64,000 nucleotides of DNA from Escherichia coli. GTDB taxonomy: Bacteria; Pseudomonadota; Gammaproteobacteria; Enterobacterales; Enterobacteriaceae. The translations under genes were made by a program, and so were the position numbers. The notes below the pieces were generated by a model, which did not search any database, was not told the DNA's origin, and was given only the letters and a program-made list of their open reading frames with translations. This document shows positions 10,441 through 58,464 of this stretch, piece by piece (position 1 is the stretch's first letter; every line of letters begins with the position of its first letter). The stretch lies in the NCBI GenBank assembly GCA_025336725.1, contig GCA_025336725.1_3647.1; one strand, 5' to 3'.

Positions 10441-11583
10441 TTAGATAAAACGCTTGAACATAGAGGGTGATGAGATTGATGGAATCACACAAGGCAGCGC
10501 TACCTCCTCTTTCTCCAGGAAATTAATCGCAGAAGCTACACAGTCGGCCCAGTCGTCTTTTCTGTTAAATGTTGATCTTTCCCCGTTGAATTTTTCAAGT
10601 TCAGTCAGAAATGCTTCCAGAGTATCAGGATGAAAACTGGATTTTACAATCCTCACCATCCCTTGTTGGGCAAGATTGGCAAAAGGTGAGAACCTTGTCA
10701 GTTTAGATTTGTTGGAAGGCATTGGGTCTTCTTCAACCCTGAACCCTTCGGCGAGCAAGGATCTGGATGAGGTTAAGAACTCACTCTTACCTGCCTGACC
10801 AGGGTCCACAGAAAATACGATTATGCAATCATCTCCATCAAACTGCGCCTGTTTTCTGATGATCACATCTCGTTCCCCAGCCTTTTTACAGAACTTGCCT
10901 TCCAGACCTGTGGAATACCTCCCGTCATCCACGTTCTCAGGACAATAGTCCCCAGATAGGTAATAAAAGCCGTCGCTATCTTTACTTACCTTAACACTGG
11001 CGGTAAAGTCAGGAAATTTATTACCGGAAGTTCTCTCGGTTCCTGCCTTATCCCATGCCCTGCAAGATACTGATCCAAGAGGTACTCTATCGGCATCACG
11101 AAGGAAAGATCTTTGGAAATAGTTTGCACCCTCAGGTTTGGCAAACCAGTTGCCATGAAGAAGCTGGGCTTTTTCCAGCTCTGGCAGACCTTCAAGGAAA
11201 GCAAGGTATTCTGGGTTGTCTCTCAGGCATACAGGATTATCGAAAATTGTTGCGCCTATAAACGAGAATGACAACGGTCTTGGCTTGATTTCCACACCTA
11301 GTCCATTGACCGTAGTGTATTTCTCTATTAACTCCTCTTTAGAGTCTCCCCAGATAAACTCACCGTCGCGTCGGATAAAATATCTTTTCTTACCACATTT
11401 CTCCGGATCTGGATACCCTTCATCGTCCAACCACCACCTAACCAGTTTGGCAAGCATGTGTTCTGAGTCGGGGTTACAACTGATAACCATTCTTGATGGA
11501 TACTTTGACTGAGATCGCAGACGAGACATCAAATAGTCTATCTGCTCCCATTCGAATTGCGTGCCTTCATCGAAGCAAACCAT
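10441..11583 (-). CDS. terL: Large terminase, Walker B and nuclease segment
   Basis: Begins MVCFDEGTQF (Walker B hhhhDE); same frame as 11611..11988, separated from it by a single TAA at 11608-11610. Confidence 0.75.
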   Translation of the reverse strand: MVCFDEGTQFEWEQIDYLMSRLRSQSKYPSRMVISCNPDSEHMLAKLVRWWLDDEGYPDPEKCGKKRYFIRRDGEFIWGDSKEELIEKYTTVNGLGVEIKPRPLSFSFIGATIFDNPVCLRDNPEYLAFLEGLPELEKAQLLHGNWFAKPEGANYFQRSFLRDADRVPLGSVSCRAWDKAGTERTSGNKFPDFTASVKVSKDSDGFYYLSGDYCPENVDDGRYSTGLEGKFCKKAGERDVIIRKQAQFDGDDCIIVFSVDPGQAGKSEFLTSSRSLLAEGFRVEEDPMPSNKSKLTRFSPFANLAQQGMVRIVKSSFHPDTLEAFLTELEKFNGERSTFNRKDDWADCVASAINFLEKEEVALPCVIPSISSPSMFKRFI

Positions 11584-11610
11584 GGTGTATTCAAGTCCTT
11601 GATGGTTAGT

Positions 11611-11988
11611 TTATCTTGGACATACTCCATGTGGCAGTATTTTACAACGGCCTCCTTTTTTGCTCCTGTCCCACTTGCCAGTGCTCGGATCAAACCGTGG
11701 AAAAATAAACTTATGATCCTTCTCTCTGAACTTTGGTTTAATGTTTTCAGGCAGATCACTGTAAATAGCTACTGCTTTAGGCCATAGCCCACCCTCACCT
11801 TCCAACTGTGGAGTTGTTCTTCGGAACATAACCACAGAGCTGTGTGGGTCATCAATAATTTTAAGTGGCATTAGCTGCAAGAGGAACGACTTGCCAGAAC
11901 CGGCTGCACCTCCGATCACCAAAATATCTGCATCGTTCTCAAGGATCATCTTCTGCTTTTCAGAACACGGTCCGTAAATCTTAGACAT
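11611..11988 (-). CDS. terL: Large terminase, N-terminal ATPase segment
   Basis: Walker A GGAAGSGKS; ends at an in-frame TAA 8 codons before the downstream segment. Confidence 0.75.
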   Translation of the reverse strand: MSKIYGPCSEKQKMILENDADILVIGGAAGSGKSFLLQLMPLKIIDDPHSSVVMFRRTTPQLEGEGGLWPKAVAIYSDLPENIKPKFREKDHKFIFPRFDPSTGKWDRSKKGGRCKILPHGVCPR

Positions 11989-12275
11989 TAACCTCTCTCC
12001 TTTGGAAACAGTGTTCTTATATAGTCTTGCAAAATGATCAATTTAGCTCTATCATTACTACAAGACAGGTTATTATCCCTCATAATGCCAGAATTCACCG
12101 CATCTGGCGCACCTTTCTTCAAAGGGATAGCTTTAGCAGGTGGTTTCATAGCACCCTCGGGAGGTTTAACAATCAACCTTCCTACATCAGGAGGGTCAAT
12201 CTTATATTCTTTTTCGACACTTGTCGCACATCCGCACAGCAGTAAGCAAGCAACTAACAATACGGTGGCTCTCAT
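11988..12275 (-). CDS. o-spanin (outer-membrane lipoprotein, Rz1-like)
   Basis: 95 aa; signal peptide with lipobox-like LLLCGC; Pro-rich; 4-nt overlap with upstream i-spanin. Confidence 0.5.
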   Translation of the reverse strand: MRATVLLVACLLLCGCATSVEKEYKIDPPDVGRLIVKPPEGAMKPPAKAIPLKKGAPDAVNSGIMRDNNLSCSNDRAKLIILQDYIRTLFPKERG

Positions 12276-13088: not shown

Positions 13089-13165
13089 TGGTCTCCACGG
13101 AGTGATTCGAACACTCGACCTCCTGATCCCAAATCAGGCGCTCTACCAAGCTGAGCTACGCGGAG
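13089..13165 (-). tRNA. tRNA-Pro (anticodon TGG)
   Basis: Hand-folded cloverleaf: acceptor CTCCGCG/CGTGGAG, anticodon stem CCTGA/TCAGG with loop TTTGGGA, T-loop TTCGAAT, encoded CCA. Confidence 0.65.
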
Positions 13166-13174
13166 TTTATAATT

Positions 13175-13249
13175 TGGTGGCCCTGGGTGGAATTGAACCA
13201 CCGTCTGGCGATTATGAGTCGCTTGCTTGAACCTTCCAGCTACAGGGCC
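13175..13249 (-). tRNA. tRNA-Met (anticodon CAT; could be Ile-lysidine)
   Basis: Acceptor GGCCCTG/CAGGGCC, anticodon loop CTCATAA, T-loop TTCAATT, encoded CCA. Confidence 0.6.
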
Positions 13250-13250
13250 A

Positions 13251-13326
13251 TGGTGCTGATGGCAGGACTCGAACCTGCAACCTATTGATTACAAATCAAT
13301 TGCACTACCAATTGTGCTACATCAGC
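13251..13326 (-). tRNA. tRNA-Thr (anticodon TGT)
   Basis: Acceptor GCTGATG/CATCAGC, anticodon stem ATTGA/TCAAT with loop TTTGTAA, T-arm GCAGG-TTCGAGT-CCTGC, CCA. Confidence 0.6.
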
Positions 13327-13331
13327 AAAAA

Positions 13332-13430
13332 GGTGCTAGGCGATGGAATCGAACCACCTATGTATTCAACGACTACTTCGTCTATTTTCAGGATTAAAAA
13401 TCCTCGCCCTTGCCAAAGGGCCTACCTAGC
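13332..13430 (-). tRNA. Atypical tRNA-like element (~99 nt), identity unresolved
   Basis: Good acceptor (GCTAGGT/GCCTAGC), D-arm and T-arm (GGTGG-TTCGATT-CCATC); only plausible anticodon hairpin AGGA-TTTTTAA-TCCT (TTT) plus a ~30-nt variable region with its own hairpin. Confidence 0.4.
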
Positions 13431-13528
13431 ATATTATGCGAATCATGCTGCTAGTCGGCGATGACGACTGTAACATTTGTTAATCCGGTTCTGCTTCCGG
13501 AGCTCGCTTAATTTCATGATCCACGATC

Positions 13529-13618
13529 TGGCAGAGAGTAATGGAATCGAACCATCATCGAGGATATCTCAACGGGACGGTTTTCAAGACCGCTTGAGCA
13601 CCATGCTCCCTACTCTCT
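13529..13618 (-). tRNA. tRNA-Ser (anticodon TGA), long variable arm
   Basis: Acceptor AGAGAGT/ACTCTCT, anticodon stem GCGGT/ACCGT with loop CTTGAAA, ~20-nt variable arm, T-loop TTCGATT, CCA. Confidence 0.6.
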
Positions 13619-13730
13619 TTTTATAAACAACACTGATAATGACACTGATTTTCGAACAGTTAGTGACTAGTATAAACGACGATAAACATCAATGTCATTA
13701 TCTATGTTATTTATCACAAATATGTAATTT

Positions 13731-13817
13731 TGGTGGGGAGTGATGGAGTCGAACCACCCGAGTCGCAATGACAATAGATTTACAGTCTACACCGCTACCC
13801 CTACGGTATAACTCCCC
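13731..13817 (-). tRNA. tRNA-Tyr (anticodon GTA), long variable arm
   Basis: Acceptor GGGGAGT/ACTCCCC, anticodon stem GTAGA/TCTAT with loop CTGTAAA, ~15-nt variable arm, T-loop TTCGACT, CCA. Confidence 0.6.
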
Positions 13818-13821
13818 GATT

Positions 13822-13896
13822 TGGCACCCCGTACTGGACTCGAACCAGTGTCAACGGCTTAGAAGGCCGCTGCTTTATCCACTAAGCTAACAGGGC
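13822..13896 (-). tRNA. tRNA-Arg (anticodon TCT)
   Basis: Anticodon stem GCGGC/GCCGT with loop CTTCTAA, T-loop TTCGAGT, CCA; acceptor contains G-U wobbles. Confidence 0.55.
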
Positions 13897-13954
13897 ACTG
13901 GGTGGCTTTCTTTTACACCTGAGCCGCCAGAAAAGGTGGGAGACCATGTTTATA

Positions 13955-13983
13955 ATATTACACTGTTAAGCAAAGTTTGTCAA
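13955..13983 (-). promoter_or_regulatory. Sigma70-type promoter for the tRNA operon
   Basis: Minus strand TTGACA - 17 nt - TAATAT about 50 nt upstream of tRNA-Arg. Confidence 0.55.
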
Positions 13984-13992
13984 GAAAATATT

Positions 13993-14187
13993 TTAACTGT
14001 TGCTAACAGGCTGTATTTCGGTGGTAAACGGCATAAAAGGTGCTGGTTTTTCAGCCTCTTCTACTACCACCTCTTCTTCCTCTTCACCAAACATCTCATC
14101 ATATTCTTCCTGCATTCTGTCTGCCTTGTCAAGGACATACTCTGCAATGCTTTGACGAATATTTTGTTTGGTTTTCGGATCCAACAT
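13993..14187 (-). CDS. Hypothetical protein, 3' portion (5' end lost in assembly gap)
   Basis: Acidic C-terminal ORF segment running into the N-run. Confidence 0.3.
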   Translation of the reverse strand: MLDPKTKQNIRQSIAEYVLDKADRMQEEYDEMFGEEEEEVVVEEAEKPAPFMPFTTEIQPVSNS

Positions 14188-14288
14188 CNNNNNNNNNNNN
14201 NNNNNNNNNNNNNNNNNNNNNNNNNNNNNNNNNNNNNNNNNNNNNNNNNNNNNNNNNNNNNNNNNNNNNNNNNNNNNNNNNNNNNNNN
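14188..14288. other. Assembly gap (run of N)
   Basis: About 100 consecutive N characters in the sequence. Confidence 0.95.
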
Positions 14289-14296
14289 AAACAACC

Positions 14297-14539
14297 TCAT
14301 TGTAAAGCACAAATAAATAAAACATACTTAATTTGTTTGTTATCGGGCTCAGGGTAGAAGTAGAAGATCTTGCTATCACCAATCTGAACACCACCATCCC
14401 AACAACATAAACCATAACCCGTATTCATACAAGCTAAGTCGTTGGCAAAATCTATTGCATCATCTAGTGCACGAAATTCACCTTCATCTTCTAAATAATC
14501 CTCATTCATGGAGCGGAAAACGAGCTTAACCTTAAACAT
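14297..14539 (-). CDS. Hypothetical protein (3' end may lie in the gap)
   Basis: 80-aa track ORF abutting the N-run. Confidence 0.3.
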   Translation of the reverse strand: MFKVKLVFRSMNEDYLEDEGEFRALDDAIDFANDLACMNTGYGLCCWDGGVQIGDSKIFYFYPEPDNKQIKYVLFICALQ

Positions 14540-14615
14540 AGCATTACCTGTAGACCTCGTAAGTTAAAATTGCATCACATCATATTGCAGATCTTATCAG
14601 GTAACACTGTTTTTG

Positions 14616-14804
14616 TCAACAGATTCCGGCCTTATCCTTCCTGTCTGCGTACTCTTTAATCGCAATCTCATCTGCATTGAGGGCCAAGCCTTCAAAGTAA
14701 TCCTCAAGCTCCTCGTCAATATCAGGAGACCAGCTCTTTTTCCTGTCAGTGTGAATTGCAGACTTGTTGAACTTATTACAGTTCTTTGCTACCGGATTGT
14801 TCAT
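14616..14804 (-). CDS. Hypothetical protein
   Basis: 62-aa track ORF, same orientation as neighbours. Confidence 0.3.
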   Translation of the reverse strand: MNNPVAKNCNKFNKSAIHTDRKKSWSPDIDEELEDYFEGLALNADEIAIKEYADRKDKAGIC

Positions 14805-14819
14805 TAGCTCTCCTCAGCG

Positions 14820-15392
14820 TTCATAGTAAATTTTATTTAACATTACCTCATTCTTTGCAGAAAGAATACCGAGATATGCATCACCGAACCTACCTGCAAC
14901 AACCTCTGCATGATACATCACTTCGTTAATATCGTCAAGAGTGATAACTGGATGACCGTATCTCTCTGAATATTGTCTTAGAGTGCGATGTAGAGAGTCG
15001 TCATCGTAGGCAGACTTTTTAATATCGCAAACACGACGAATAGCCTTGATGTCGAAAAACCCTGTGCGATACTAACCAAAGGAAAGTGTCTCATCAGTAT
15101 CAACATCTACATCAATACTAGCAAGAACCTTATCTACAAGATAGCTGTCATCCTTTGGACTAGCTTCCTTAGTGCGAATGTAGTTGCCATCTTTCCCTGG
15201 TGACAACTCCTTCTCATCACCAACTCGCATGTCATCGTTTGGCGGTGTTAACCACTTATCTGGATGCTTACGATCACGAGCGTCCGAATGATTGCGCTGG
15301 AAACCTGGCTTCCACTTGAAAGTTTTCCCCATCTGTTCTTCATCCTGATAACGTTTTGCAATCTTTTCTCGGTCATGTTTGCGTGAGCTCAT
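14820..15392 (-). CDS. Hypothetical protein, apparently frameshifted into two segments
   Basis: Track ORF 15072..15392 continues in another frame (YRTGFFDIKAIRRV...KIYYER, no start codon of its own) down to ~14820; shift sits near a TTTTT run. Confidence 0.3.
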
Positions 15393-15499
15393 AGCTGACT
15401 CCTCTTCAGGTTATAGAAAAACTCACTGTATCGCTTTGTAACAAGCTTTTCTATCAATCTGGTGTGATTGCCTTACCTAATGTAGTTCACACAGCTGTA

Positions 15500-15770
15500 G
15501 AGCGATTTAGAGGCCTTCTTGCCAGTTTCCACACATAAACTTTAAACAAACTCGCGCGGGAGACTCTCAACCGACTCCTTACGGCGCTTGCAAGCTTTCG
15601 TCGGCGGTCCACATTAGTGCTCGGCCTTTGGCCTGCGCTATAGCTTCGCTACCACACATGTGAACAGTCATGCATGTATGCACGCCTGTTATTGTGTGCA
15701 CTATGGAGGCCCGGCATCTCGCCCCTCATAGGCGAGTGCCAATGAAGGGCCGACACTATACCAGTAAGTA
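15500..15770. other. GC-rich, ORF-free, hairpin-dense segment (candidate structured RNA/leader)
   Basis: Multiple stems, e.g. GGCCC-GGCA-CTCGCC-loop-GGCGAG-TGCC-GGGCC (15708-15751), GGCC-ttt-GGCC, GCTTGCAAGC; no ORF of 60 aa or more. Confidence 0.3.
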
Positions 15771-15896
15771 ATAAATTTAAAACATAATACTTTAGATCTA
15801 GTATATTCTACATAAGTTAAGTATATGTACTTTAGTACCATAAGTACTAGATCTTTTATTTTTTATTATTTAGTTATTTTAGTTATATTCTTTATG

Positions 15897-15977
15897 TGTC
15901 CGTATCACGGACAGTTAGTGTCCGTATTACGGACAGATGTGTCCGCGTGGCGGACAGTAGTGTCCGTCTCACGGACA
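15897..15977. promoter_or_regulatory. Array of four palindromic operator-like sites TGTCCG-N5-CGGACA
   Basis: Perfect 6-bp inverted arms at ~15897, 15919, 15940, 15961 (21-22 bp phasing), intergenic. Confidence 0.6.
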
Positions 15978-16052
15978 GTTGGTAATCTTTGTGCTGTTGT
16001 GGACATAAAACATACATACCTTTATAATACAAATATTTAAGTTTTTACTGGT

Positions 16053-16403
16053 CTAACCAGTTGTCGACATGTGAATCACTTCTTCTGGTGGTAAAACTTT
16101 AGAAAATGTGCATCTTTTCCCTCTCCCTTGTGTGGAAGTTTCAACTATCCCAGCACACTCTAAAGTTCTAACGCATTCTGCTGCTTTCGTTTTCTTAATC
16201 CCTGTATCAGCTGCAATTTTCCTTGTGCTTGGTGTGAATCGTGAATTTCCTCCAAGCTTATACCAGTTGTGCAGATAGCAGTATACTACCTTGTCATACA
16301 GATCAAGAATAACCACCTCTCCTGTTGTAGTATTCAAAACTTTCGACAGAGAAAGTATCCCAAGCGGGACTTTAAGATAGGGCAGCTTATCCTCATCTTT
16401 CAT
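16053..16403 (-). CDS. Small DNA-binding-like protein (possible winged helix)
   Basis: 116-aa track ORF; segment RKIAADTGIKKTKAAECVRTLECAGIV resembles an HTH; adjacent to the palindrome array. Confidence 0.3.
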   Translation of the reverse strand: MKDEDKLPYLKVPLGILSLSKVLNTTTGEVVILDLYDKVVYCYLHNWYKLGGNSRFTPSTRKIAADTGIKKTKAAECVRTLECAGIVETSTQGRGKRCTFSKVLPPEEVIHMSTTG

Positions 16404-16450
16404 ATCTCCTGATTCTCCTTGTGTGGATATTTTCTTTAATATAGCAGGGA

Positions 16451-17005
16451 TTACTCCCTGCTGTCAATATCAAAACCCATTGCAAGGCCGTATGCCTCTT
16501 CTAGCGGTAACAGTCTCCCCCACACATCCCAACCAACATCCAACTGCCTGCCAAATAACTGTTGTGTGGTTCCGTGAGCATGACCAAACAGTTGAACTGA
16601 TCCGTGGGGCTTTCTGTTCCACGTTGCAAACTGGTAATGGCTCATACAGATCAGATTCTTGTTGTGGCGAAGCTCGTAATAATCTACAACCTCATGACAG
16701 AACTCTTTCATAATTCTGACAGTCGTCCTTGTGTCATGGTTACCACGAACAAGAATAATATGTCCGTTCAGCATATTTAGAATTTCAGGCAGTAAGTTGT
16801 TGATATTCTTATCCTTAGTGCATGCAATGTCTCCCAAGTGGAACACGGTGTCCCATGGTGACACAATTGAGTTCCACTTGTCTATGATCCCTGCATTCAT
16901 GCTATCAAGATCGTGGTTATACTGCGATCTGTGCTTTTGACAAGAATCGAACTCCATAACACGCTGGTGGAGAAAGTGTGTGTCACTTGTTATAAAATAT
17001 TTCAT
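16451..17005 (-). CDS. Calcineurin-like metallophosphoesterase
   Basis: Motifs SDTHF (DxH), GD, LVRGNHD (GNHD), GHAHG (GHxH). Confidence 0.75.
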   Translation of the reverse strand: MKYFITSDTHFLHQRVMEFDSCQKHRSQYNHDLDSMNAGIIDKWNSIVSPWDTVFHLGDIACTKDKNINNLLPEILNMLNGHIILVRGNHDTRTTVRIMKEFCHEVVDYYELRHNKNLICMSHYQFATWNRKPHGSVQLFGHAHGTTQQLFGRQLDVGWDVWGRLLPLEEAYGLAMGFDIDSRE

Positions 17006-17012
17006 ACTATCC

Positions 17013-17423
17013 TCATTTAAGTTTAATACAGTTTTTCAGTTCACGTTCCATACGATCCACAACCCTTTCTGGAACATTGTGGATACTTTTGTTACCGTGG
17101 CGATTCTCCACCACGATTACGGTGTAATTATACCCATTACGGATCGCCATGTCAATATACTCTTGCACATGCTTTTCTTTTGTGAATGTGTTGCTTACCA
17201 CGACACGGTCGTATCCCATACGCATCATATCTTCTATATTATCTTTGCACCATTTTGCAGCAAGTGTGACTTTACTTGCATCCCAGTTGTAATTTCCATC
17301 ATCGTCGTACCAGAACATGTCGTTCTCAAAATGTGGATACAGACCTTCTAAAGATAGCGCATTTGCCAGTGTTGATTTGCCAGACCCTGGTAGACCACGC
17401 ACGATATACAGCATTTTAGACAT
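17013..17423 (-). CDS. P-loop kinase (polynucleotide-kinase-like candidate)
   Basis: Walker A GLPGSGKST right after start; start refined to Met 34 with GGAGGG RBS (track ORF runs to 17522). Confidence 0.45.
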   Translation of the reverse strand: MSKMLYIVRGLPGSGKSTLANALSLEGLYPHFENDMFWYDDDGNYNWDASKVTLAAKWCKDNIEDMMRMGYDRVVVSNTFTKEKHVQEYIDMAIRNGYNYTVIVVENRHGNKSIHNVPERVVDRMERELKNCIKLK

Positions 17424-17502
17424 AGCGACCCTCCGTTTTAATTTTAACGACAGTATACCGTGTTCTTTTGAACATTTCAAGTGTTGACATGATGCTGTTT
17501 GT

Positions 17503-18459
17503 GTGGGAAGATTGTGTAACAAAATGACAAACGAGGAACGTATGATGAAGTATTTTAATGCAGATGATTTAGTGGATAAAGGTCTTGTAACCAGTCGGTA
17601 TTATCCAAATCTCGGATTAAAGATCTACAAATATGCCAGAAAAGTATTCTACAACAATTTATGGCATTTGTCTCCGCGTCTACTGGAGTGCCGAGGCATT
17701 GTTGTCGGTAACGAGGGGAATGTTGTGGCATGGCCCTTCACAAAAGTGTTTAACTTAGGAGAAAACTCCACCAACCTACCTGACAATAAGCTTGTGACGG
17801 CTGTAGAGAAAAAGAACGGGTTCCTTGGCGTGGTATCCTCTCATAAAGGTGAACTATTGTTCTCAACGACTGGGTCTCTTGATTCTCCATATTGTAACCT
17901 TGCAAAGGAAACCATCCAGGAGCAATGTGGCAATTTAGATCTTATCAAGAAGGTTATGGGCCATGAAAACATGACATTTATGTTTGAAATTTGTCACCCT
18001 TCAGACCCGCATATTGTTCATGAGGATCATGGTGCGTATTTGATAGGTTGTAGATACAATGATTCTGGAATAATGCTACCAGAAGCGGCTTTAGACGGTA
18101 TTGCCAAGTATCTTGGTGCAAAACGTCCTCACACTGTGCGTGAAATTCCGTTCAGCTATGCAAAAGAATTAGCTGCAGAAACAAGAGGTGAAGGGTATAT
18201 GATTCGTAAGCCTTACTACCCTTATGATCTGCAGCTGAAGATCAAGTCTCCATACTATTTGGCACGGAAGGCCGTAATGAGGGGTAAAGCTTGGAAGATT
18301 TGGGATGATGATATCTTTAAACGTGTTGACGAAGAGTTTTATGGCATGGTAAACTTCATTCGTAGCAATTACACAGAAGATGTGTGGAACTGCCTCCTGG
18401 AGCAAGAACGTCGTGAGATACTTGACTGCTATTTCCACAACGAGGACTATATGCAATGA
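17503..18459 (+). CDS. ATP-dependent RNA ligase-like nucleotidyltransferase
   Basis: Motif I EKKNGF (KxNG), motif IV GEGYMIRK, motif V LKIKSP; likely start at a downstream Met (17524 or 17542). Confidence 0.55.
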   Translation: MGRLCNKMTNEERMMKYFNADDLVDKGLVTSRYYPNLGLKIYKYARKVFYNNLWHLSPRLLECRGIVVGNEGNVVAWPFTKVFNLGENSTNLPDNKLVTAVEKKNGFLGVVSSHKGELLFSTTGSLDSPYCNLAKETIQEQCGNLDLIKKVMGHENMTFMFEICHPSDPHIVHEDHGAYLIGCRYNDSGIMLPEAALDGIAKYLGAKRPHTVREIPFSYAKELAAETRGEGYMIRKPYYPYDLQLKIKSPYYLARKAVMRGKAWKIWDDDIFKRVDEEFYGMVNFIRSNYTEDVWNCLLEQERREILDCYFHNEDYMQ

Positions 18460-57927: not shown

Positions 57928-58464
57928 TCAGCCAGAAATATCTCAAGGGGTCCGGTTATGCCACGATTCTGTGCTTGTCCTACAGGAGTGCTGCCCTGTC
58001 AGGAGCCGGTAGCGACTGGAGTGCTGCCAGGCGGACGGAATGGGAATACTTCTCATTCTTATAACGATTCTCAAATATCATGGCAGTGAGGCAAATTAAT
58101 AGGCCAGGCCGTTCACACAGTGGCACAACATTTGCAACCTATCTTGGGTGGGGGAATGAGAATACCTATCATTGTGAGAATAGTTATCATTACGGGCAAT
58201 TTAACATAATACCCATTATGCGCACCACTGGCGATACATACAGGGATTGATAACATGTGACACTGTTTACGCATATAACAATTGCATTTCTTACTATTTG
58301 TGGGGGATATAGTTAGCAGCCAATAGATTAGATATTAACCTGCAGCTATCCAGCCATTTAGACGTCTAAACGCCCACACAACAAGGATTATACATACATT
58401 CCTGAATGTAAACAGGGCCGCAAAAATGCTACCATACCAGATTGTAAATTTTTCATGCAGCACT

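Follow-up and report, generated by a model that had tools for sequence, protein, structure and literature searches.

What does an Escherichia coli phage keep in a few hundred nucleotides that hold no gene? The question is raised by a 64,000-nucleotide stretch of assembly GCA_025336725.1 (contig GCA_025336725.1_3647.1; hereafter the window), in which positions 15500-15770 had been singled out, from the letters alone, as a GC-rich, hairpin-dense segment and a candidate structured RNA or long leader (hereafter the original prediction). The window belongs to a Vequintavirus, an rV5-like myovirus of E. coli: its region 15400-15800 matches 119 records of a phage collection at 85-97% identity, all of the genus Vequintavirus, some of them mislabelled as Campylobacter phages. 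At this place the rV5 genome paper shows only an unlabelled 'non-coding' box. We find that the segment is very probably part of a new conserved non-coding element, which folds as a single strand and links these phages to a family of small capsid-encoding plasmids. The element as we delimit it is the following:

15468-15758, minus strand: the whole conserved structured non-coding element, from the 5' flank TAGTGTC to the motif TAAGGCAA; about 290 nt, 52% GC.

The element reaches slightly further than the boundary first drawn at 15500, namely to about 15468. As originally described, it is flanked on one side by four 17-bp palindromes (15896-15983) and on the other by the next gene of the minus strand (15072-15392). 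The GC content of 15480-15770 is 52.2% against 42.7% for the window, which is about three standard deviations up (3.1% for windows of 291 nt) and third in rank. The segment is indeed GC-rich, then, but the genome around it, which had been called AT-rich, is only mildly so. By covariance model, the element is found as a single copy at one locus in all 119 phages, and no further copy is found elsewhere in the window or on E. coli chromosomes. Its mean pairwise identity is 92%, about equal to that of the flanking genes.

The element is not translated. No open reading frame (ORF) of at least 60 amino acids (aa) overlaps the segment, the longest being 33-46 aa. Comparison of 16-20 phage sequences shows several kinds of break in the candidate frames: the window has a stop, JEP1 has lost one (stop-to-sense), MaxTheCat lacks 1 nt, and L022, a divergent Vequintavirus-like phage from a metagenome (IMGVR_UViG_3300010279_000001), has early stops. 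Variable sites fall on the three phases in the proportions 20/21/22, as opposed to 9/11/45 in the neighbouring helix-turn-helix (HTH) gene. With frames broken in such various ways and no third-position bias, the frameshifted protein that the original prediction had set against itself finds no support here.

Nor is the element a member of a known RNA class, in agreement with what had been supposed. ARAGORN and Rfam find no tRNA or tmRNA in 15400-15800. The proposed covariance-model search, run against Rfam 15 at relaxed thresholds, gave chance-level matches only in the phage (rli43 at 25 bits versus a threshold of 100; microRNA models) and no match in the plasmids' non-coding region. The element is thus absent from Rfam, while its kind, a cis-acting structured non-coding element, is already known.

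Where else does the element occur? Complete E. coli genomes searched with it gave no chromosomal match and four small plasmids, and PLSDB, metagenomic data and a look-up anchored on a protein added more copies. Further searches, by protein anchor or by pattern, of IMG/VR, GTDB genomes and metagenomes yielded L022 and a few more phage and plasmid copies, and no distant relatives. The plasmid family has the following members:

L018 (NZ_CP020521.1, whole), L017, L019-L021, L023, L025 and L030-L033.

These plasmids are circular and measure 13.2-14.3 kb (unit of about 13.5 kb). Besides a tape-measure protein of 700 aa, their genes specify a major capsid, a neck and a Dit-like distal tail protein, together with an HTH_36 protein of about 300 aa; none of their ORFs is large enough for a terminase or a portal. 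The HTH_36 protein, which is Rep-like, also has weak matches to DnaD_N and to 'replication initiation O-like' PHROGs. Outside the element, plasmid and phage proteins share 23-45% identity (capsid 23.5% and neck 44.7% when compared with those of the window). When the whole 13.7-kb plasmid was compared with 50,697 phage records, the element was the one place of similarity, and the 119 records of Vequintavirus were the only ones to match. Within the plasmids, the element has the same setting as in the phage, following the palindrome array of an HTH_36 protein and an AT-rich stretch. In our searches, the capsid family was met in E. coli alone, with 441 sequences in one 90% cluster, and a literature search found no published description of this E. 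coli plasmid family. An element that is shared while the remaining genomes differ is the pattern of a cis element common to a helper and its satellite. On this comparison, the plasmids look like candidate satellites, with Vequintavirus as the candidate helper.

Two members stand out by their context. L017 (NZ_CP043822.1, 39,610 bp) matches at three places and is about three times the unit length, so that it may be a trimer of the 13-kb element. L033 lies on a contig of 30 kb together with a DDE transposase and two genes for aminoglycoside phosphotransferases (13901-17034); hence, the plasmid element can be linked to resistance genes.

Does the element fold? Two of its parts provide the evidence:

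15708-15751, minus strand: hairpin A, with a GGCCC/GGGCC lower stem, a 6-nt internal loop UUCAUU, an 11-bp upper stem with one bulged A, and the loop UAUGAG.

15570-15605, minus strand: helix B, a 6-bp stem (15600-15605 with 15570-15575) that closes a near-invariant 24-nt loop.

Hairpin A is the composite stem that had already been noticed, and it is exceptional: it has 16 pairs at -28 kcal/mol, with z = -3.45 (minus strand) and -4.28 (plus strand), and none of 200 shuffles is as good. Its mean pairwise identity among the phages is 98.6%; in conservation, it and the 24-nt loop surpass the neighbouring genes. The fold energy of the segment as a whole is only slightly better than that of shuffles (z = -1.7 minus, -2.6 plus).

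The covariation check suggested at the outset was carried out on phage and plasmid copies, whose core aligns over 79 nt without a gap. From phage to plasmid, three of the six pairs of helix B are exchanged on both sides (A:U or G:U to G:C; C:G to U:A; A:U to C:G). Pairing is kept in 99.1% of cells, versus 1-50% when the partner is slid, and none of 500 shuffles reaches the covariation score. The 24-nt loop, GAAAGCUUGC(C/A)AGCGCCG(U/G)AAGGA, includes a Shine-Dalgarno-like AAGGAG; the plasmid loop equals the phage consensus at 23 of 24 positions and that of some phages at all 24. Hairpin A is found in one plasmid type (L018), where two G:C pairs have become U:A, 99.6% of cells are paired and no pair is broken. 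The alignments thus show hairpin A and helix B, as predicted helices, to be maintained by compensatory substitutions. The five exchanges make up most of the differences within those stretches, and all of them come from one phage-versus-plasmid split, hence from few independent events. Together with the near-invariant 24-nt loop, they argue that the element folds as a single strand. Furthermore, the folding energy of the core is unremarkable when compared with shuffles (z = +0.8), and a covarying stem with an invariant open loop suggests a recognition site rather than a compact fold.

Other pairings fared less well. An inner stem CUUGC/GUAAG, with the GCTTGCAAGC palindrome, was rejected because it is broken in relatives. 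The palindrome is present at 15585-15594 as had been stated, but only in this phage and in a close metagenomic relative (L026), the other sampled relatives having GCTTGCCAGC. A pairing of GGAC with GUCU or GCCU was also rejected, as it gives A:C in many phages. The whole-element consensus folds computed with RNAalifold differ at the centre between alignments; we therefore relied only on helices with compensatory support. The sole further predicted helices that we trust are the wobble-tolerant 3' hairpin and the hairpin before the ribosome-binding site (RBS) of the next gene. In the order of the minus strand, the remaining parts are as follows:

15752-15758, minus strand: 5' flank UAGUGUC, alternative partner 1 of GCACUA (15615-15620) in a long-range helix given by RNAalifold, with U:A, U:G and C:G at one pair.

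15698-15703, minus strand: 3' flank UAGUGC, alternative partner 2 of GCACUA, in a 6-bp helix retained in the main phage group.

15663-15690, minus strand: middle hairpin AACAG...CUGUU, dispensable.

15652-15659, minus strand: AUGUGUGG motif (second copy at 15529-15536), able to pair with CACACA at 15691-15698.

15623-15649, minus strand: mini-hairpins GCGAAGC (15643-15649) and GGCC-AAA-GGCC (15623-15633), mostly invariant among phages and read from the sequence; the latter had been pointed out in the original prediction.

15606-15615, minus strand: AAUGUGGACC, a conserved single-stranded junction 5' of helix B, near-identical in phages and plasmids.

15551-15568, minus strand: GAGAGUCUCCCGCGCGAG, the conserved GC-rich tail of the core, of which AGAGTCTCCCGCGC is common to phages and plasmids.

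15484-15542, minus strand: 3' hairpin AAGUUUAUGUGUGGA / UCUACAGCUGUGUGAACU carrying CCUCUAAAUCGC (15502-15513), given by RNAalifold; it has many one-sided changes and stays paired via wobble.

15413-15454, minus strand: 13-bp hairpin just 5' of the next gene's RBS (RBS and ATG at 15390-15407); z = -2.29, pairs kept in 20 phages.

A long-range helix likely closes the variable middle in one of two competing registers, each with its own backing in the alignments. L022 speaks for the 5'-flank helix, which it keeps as GGUG/CACC (read by eye from the alignment). Plasmid L018 speaks for the 3'-flank helix, having UGUGGGU/GCCCACA as its equivalent; this helix is broken in L022 and cut to 3 bp in L004. 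Within the middle, an 18-nt deletion between GTGCA[C/T]ACA direct repeats removes most of the hairpin in Murica, MaxTheCat, TP5 and A6-1. The AAUGUGGA portion of the junction is retained even where plasmids replace helix B, the motifs CCUCUAAAUCGC and UAAGGCAA recur in plasmids, and the same motif as at AUGUGUGG, in the form UGUGUGGG, lies between the hairpin cassettes of the plasmids. As for the heptamer TGTGTGG, it occurs 27 times in the whole window versus 8.8 expected, mostly antisense to genes (e.g. 58374, 57525, 17500, 16420), and at 58374 it stands directly 3' of TGTATAAT, an extended -10-like sequence. It is over-represented window-wide and is thus not specific to the element.

In what form would such an element act? 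Base-pair covariation cannot tell RNA from single-stranded DNA. The minus strand carries every gene from position 1 to about 17.5 kb, where an RNA ligase gene is divergent. The order along it is a polynucleotide-kinase-like ATPase, a metallophosphatase, the 116-aa HTH protein, about 660 nt free of genes, a 192-aa hypothetical gene, two small genes and a tRNA cluster (13089-13896), followed by a spanin, the large terminase, the portal, and capsid and tail genes. Three features frame the element:

16438-16467, minus strand: sigma-70-like promoter TTGACA-18-TATATT with TG (11/12 match), 5' of the HTH gene; it could drive transcription across the element.

16053-16403, minus strand: HTH_36 / DUF6945 DNA-binding protein, 116 aa, annotated in relatives as a transcriptional regulator or a replication initiation protein.

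15072-15392, minus strand: first downstream gene, PHROG 12226, of unknown function; 192 aa in relatives, open for 106 aa here.

In the phage, the scan showed neither a promoter nor a terminator dedicated to the segment; it found intrinsic terminators on neither strand in 15400-15800, and none on the minus strand between the end of the HTH gene and the element. The sole terminator-like site on that strand is a weak 5-pair stem within the HTH gene (16370-16357).

The reading that we favour, and to which we give a probability of roughly 40%, is that of a structured RNA platform in an early leftward transcript. The element would be transcribed on the minus strand within this transcript, which would start at the promoter before the HTH gene and extend through the small genes and the tRNA cluster to the packaging genes. 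In the RNA, the stems of the element would present the invariant loops to a factor, phage-encoded or phage-recruited, whose target would be either the transcript or the polymerase making it (by processing, read-through or regulation). The plasmids would bear the same hairpins so that the factor acts on them too during phage infection.

Several observations lead us to favour the RNA platform. The element is co-oriented with all flanking genes in both the phage and the plasmids, and a promoter-like site stands upstream with no terminator found before the element. It is conserved without coding, has compensatory pairs and a stable hairpin A, and shows, in the unremarkable energy and conserved sequence of its core, the pattern of recognition loops. 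Moreover, it is the sole DNA shared by plasmid and phage, the capsid and neck proteins being distant homologues. Finally, the plasmids carry RNA-type tetraloops and a resemblance to boxA and boxC. Their array consists of hairpin cassettes separated by UGUGUGGG, which are gained, lost or inverted between plasmids and have UUCG and GAUA loops. The sense strand by the first hairpin matches the boxA core UGCUCUUUA and the boxC region CAAUCUGUGUGGG of the E. coli rrnH leader; in L030 (~2700-2745), the two amount to 22 identical bases over a 13-nt deletion. The first-hairpin loop of L030 is inverted relative to the other plasmids.

Against the RNA platform weigh the following points. The counts of G:U versus A:C and RNAalifold runs on both strands show no asymmetry that would mark the folding strand, and boxA (YGCUCUUUA), which an rrn- or lambda-type antitermination site would have upstream of the structured RNA on the transcribed strand, is absent from the phage element. 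The boxA/boxC-like plasmid hairpin is nearly palindromic, hence a similar match is obtained on both strands, and its antisense strand resembles an intrinsic terminator. Strong sigma-70-like promoters lie downstream of the element in the plasmids, where the element is therefore not the leader of their operon. In L030 and L031, helix B is replaced between the same flanks by an unrelated 8-bp hairpin, which has no significant match in any sequenced phage; in L032, the core is also absent by model search. No trans-acting factor was identified for the element, and the literature held no transcriptome, origin or pac mapping that we could find for the genus Vequintavirus. Of the original 'structured RNA or long leader', then, the structure stands, by the compensatory changes in two helices and the lack of a coding signal, whereas RNA and leader are as yet unproven.

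The element may also be set beside known systems. Satellites copy the cos sites of their helpers (P4/P2-type cos, cos-type phage-inducible chromosomal islands), and here, likewise, a short non-coding stretch is the only nucleotide similarity between a large virulent phage and a small element without key morphogenesis genes. Helper cos sites are double-stranded terminase targets, however, while here stems are kept by compensation and loops by sequence, and helper dependence is a candidate only. With lambda nut and the rrn leader (boxA, boxB hairpin, boxC), the element shares conserved-loop hairpins on the transcribed strand downstream of a small HTH gene, and the plasmids add the identity to the rrnH leader given above. 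It differs in that the phage copy is without boxA, the plasmid match falls in a near-palindromic stem and the loops are far larger than boxB; we know of no N-like protein in this system. GOLLD and ROOL, large structured RNAs of phages that are found close to tRNA genes, are similar as GC-rich structured non-coding sequences of large phages, and the present element, too, has a tRNA cluster about 1.6 kb downstream on its strand; it has no Rfam match to them and is, at about 290 nt, smaller and modular. Two further resemblances were set aside. A 34-nt match of the plasmid region to the 'inverted repeat B' of phage T5 (E = 0.04) was treated as chance after reading, and a partial likeness to the E. 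coli type I-E CRISPR (clustered regularly interspaced short palindromic repeats) repeat, without the repeat's 3' arm, was taken for a coincidence.

Could the element instead act as DNA, at an origin of replication? In that case, HTH_36 would bind the palindromes and the AT-rich stretch would melt; once unwound, the GC-rich DNA beside it would form hairpins A and B, and these would recruit primase or helicase for DNA synthesis; the plasmids would have copied the signal so that the phage replisome amplifies them. We regard this as unlikely, though it draws on much of the surrounding architecture, in which two features are needed:

15896-15983, no strand assigned: palindrome array, four 17-bp copies of TGTCCGYNNNRCGGACA at a spacing of 21-22 bp.

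15771-15899, no strand assigned: AT-rich stretch separating the palindromes from the element; GC about 0.31, with two AGATCT sites and GTACWWA repeats.

In phage, divergent phage and plasmids, the order is the same: an HTH_36 protein, a palindrome array, an AT-rich stretch and the element. The plasmid arrays differ from the phage's and from one another. Among phages, the number of copies varies, with three in L028 and a locus that is 42 nt longer here in typing phage 14. In L022 (2150-2770), the HTH homologue is 26% identical and the TGTCCG palindromes are replaced by TGCATCAGAT-type repeats, while the neighbouring phosphatase gene and the GC-rich element are retained. Since HTH and repeats differ while the element stays, the HTH protein and its sites appear to be a swappable cognate pair beside a constant element. 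At least three regularly spaced repeats next to an AT-rich region mark an iteron-type (lambda ori-like) origin, and both are found here. Moreover, the AT-rich stretch is, at 98.1% mean pairwise identity, above the flanking genes and the best-conserved part of the region, and the minimum of the cumulative GC skew is found about 1.7 kb from the element, as is divergent transcription. Changes of skew have been reported for rV5 at the homologous place (PMC3606486). The phage HTH protein can be aligned to the N-terminal domain of the Rep-like protein of a plasmid (E = 1e-4), whose HTH_36, DnaD_N and O-like matches point the same way, as does the name of replication initiation protein in some phage records. 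Finally, hairpins of DNA would account for the compensatory changes no less well than hairpins of RNA.

These indications of a cognate initiator, however, are equally those of a repressor with its operators; the HTH_36 match in the phage is just at threshold (25.1 vs 25). In addition, helix B is absent from some plasmids, and primase-helicases of the gp4 type, as reported for rV5, have no known need for structured signals. The G4-type and phiX174-type signals, the R1 G site and lambda 'ice' are single-strand initiation or primosome sites, to which the element is similar as hairpin-rich, orientation-specific non-coding DNA by an iteron and AT-rich module. No relation in sequence to known signals or primosome assembly sites was found when PLSDB was searched with the plasmid copy and E. 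coli genomes with the phage copy; in PLSDB, the only similar sequences are those of the present plasmid family and of a single Vequintavirus genome that is filed there as a plasmid. A search for homologues of the phage HTH protein found none beyond the same 119 phages. Beside the palindromes, a strong sigma-70-like promoter match, TGGACA-17-TATAAT (11/12), is also seen at 16000-16028 on the plus strand, antisense into the 3' end of the HTH gene.

A packaging signal comes next, and it is a good deal less plausible. The element would be the pac recognition region of a headful-packaging phage, mimicked by the plasmids for the helper's terminase. This would suit plasmids in which no ORF has the size needed for a terminase or portal and which share no other DNA with the phage; the large terminase and portal genes are 3.4 kb downstream on the same strand, and the rV5 genome paper reports a permuted genome. 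The compensatory stems are, however, left unexplained. Small terminases read pac sites as double-stranded DNA, which has no need for compensatory stems, bulges or wobbles. Moreover, no recognisable small-terminase gene stands beside the element, and the plasmids with the alternative hairpin match no phage significantly.

It is more improbable still that the hairpins are selfish or neutral palindromic cassettes (REP- or miniature inverted-repeat-like), shuffled at the UGUGUGGG repeats and of no function to the carrier. The gain, loss and inversion of cassettes among the plasmids would fit, as would the 18-nt deletion between direct repeats in some phages and the direct repeat TAGTG on both sides of hairpin A. 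Such cassettes would not be expected to sit at one locus, in one copy, in all 119 phages, with hairpin A and the 24-nt loop conserved beyond the neighbouring genes and no copies elsewhere in the window or on E. coli chromosomes. Small proteins, annotated as hypothetical in a few GenBank records (ORFs of 27-56 aa), can be dismissed with near certainty: both larger indels of the phage alignment are multiples of three, but the annotations are mutually inconsistent, the ORFs are broken by the stops and deletion listed above, the phases show no third-position bias, and the 18-nt deletion falls between direct repeats.

The wider locus offers some further observations. The metallophosphatase, a P-loop kinase and a T4 RnlA-like RNA ligase form an RNA-repair-type cluster at 16451-18459, near the tRNA genes and the element. 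Six tRNAs are called at 13089-13896 (ARAGORN / Rfam). At 13335-13430, there is a weak Rfam tRNA-Sec-like match (29.5 bits) that ARAGORN does not call; relatives annotate here a tRNA-Lys or 'tRNA-OTHER' of 97-99 nt, which would be an unusually long tRNA-like gene. The first downstream gene extends over 14815-15392 by its relatives, and its alignment is gapped at about 15068-15097, indicating a frameshift, a stop or a sequencing error. Exactly 100 N occupy 14189-14288, in the region of small genes downstream of the element, presumably a scaffold gap. The large terminase is split over two neighbouring ORFs, 11614-12042 and 10444-11610, whose matches follow each other along one PHROG profile.

Returning to the RNA platform and its possible use by the plasmids, the nearest parallel is provided by cf-PISP and PISP, recently described episomal satellite-plasmids of Vibrio, no member of whose family is reported outside that genus (PMC13230959). 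Like these, the E. coli elements are small and circular and combine a capsid protein with plasmid-type replication, without being complete phages. Unlike them, they also have genes for distal-tail, tape-measure and neck proteins and none for a terminase or portal, and our searches found them in E. coli only. The modular cassette array and the exclusive sharing of the element between a virulent phage genus and capsid-encoding plasmids are new. We tentatively propose, while holding it to be doubtful, that the hairpins are the recognition module by which undescribed satellite-plasmids of E. coli tap a factor of a virulent rV5-type phage. The exchangeable cassette array, separated by UGUGUGGG and similar in this to the boxC of rRNA leaders, would then be a new modular non-coding RNA or single-stranded DNA that sets which helper can be exploited.

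Phages of the rV5 type are widely isolated and are candidates for therapy and biocontrol against E. coli. A conserved and structurally constrained element shared by every one of the 119 sequenced members is a precise target for work to map an origin, a packaging signal or a non-coding RNA, and it suggests which phages may serve as helper to a common family of small plasmids that encode a capsid in E. coli. If these plasmids are indeed satellites of virulent phages, the satellite-plasmid lifestyle would extend to E. coli, and the plasmids would matter for phage therapy, both as a source of interference with the phage and as a route of gene transfer.

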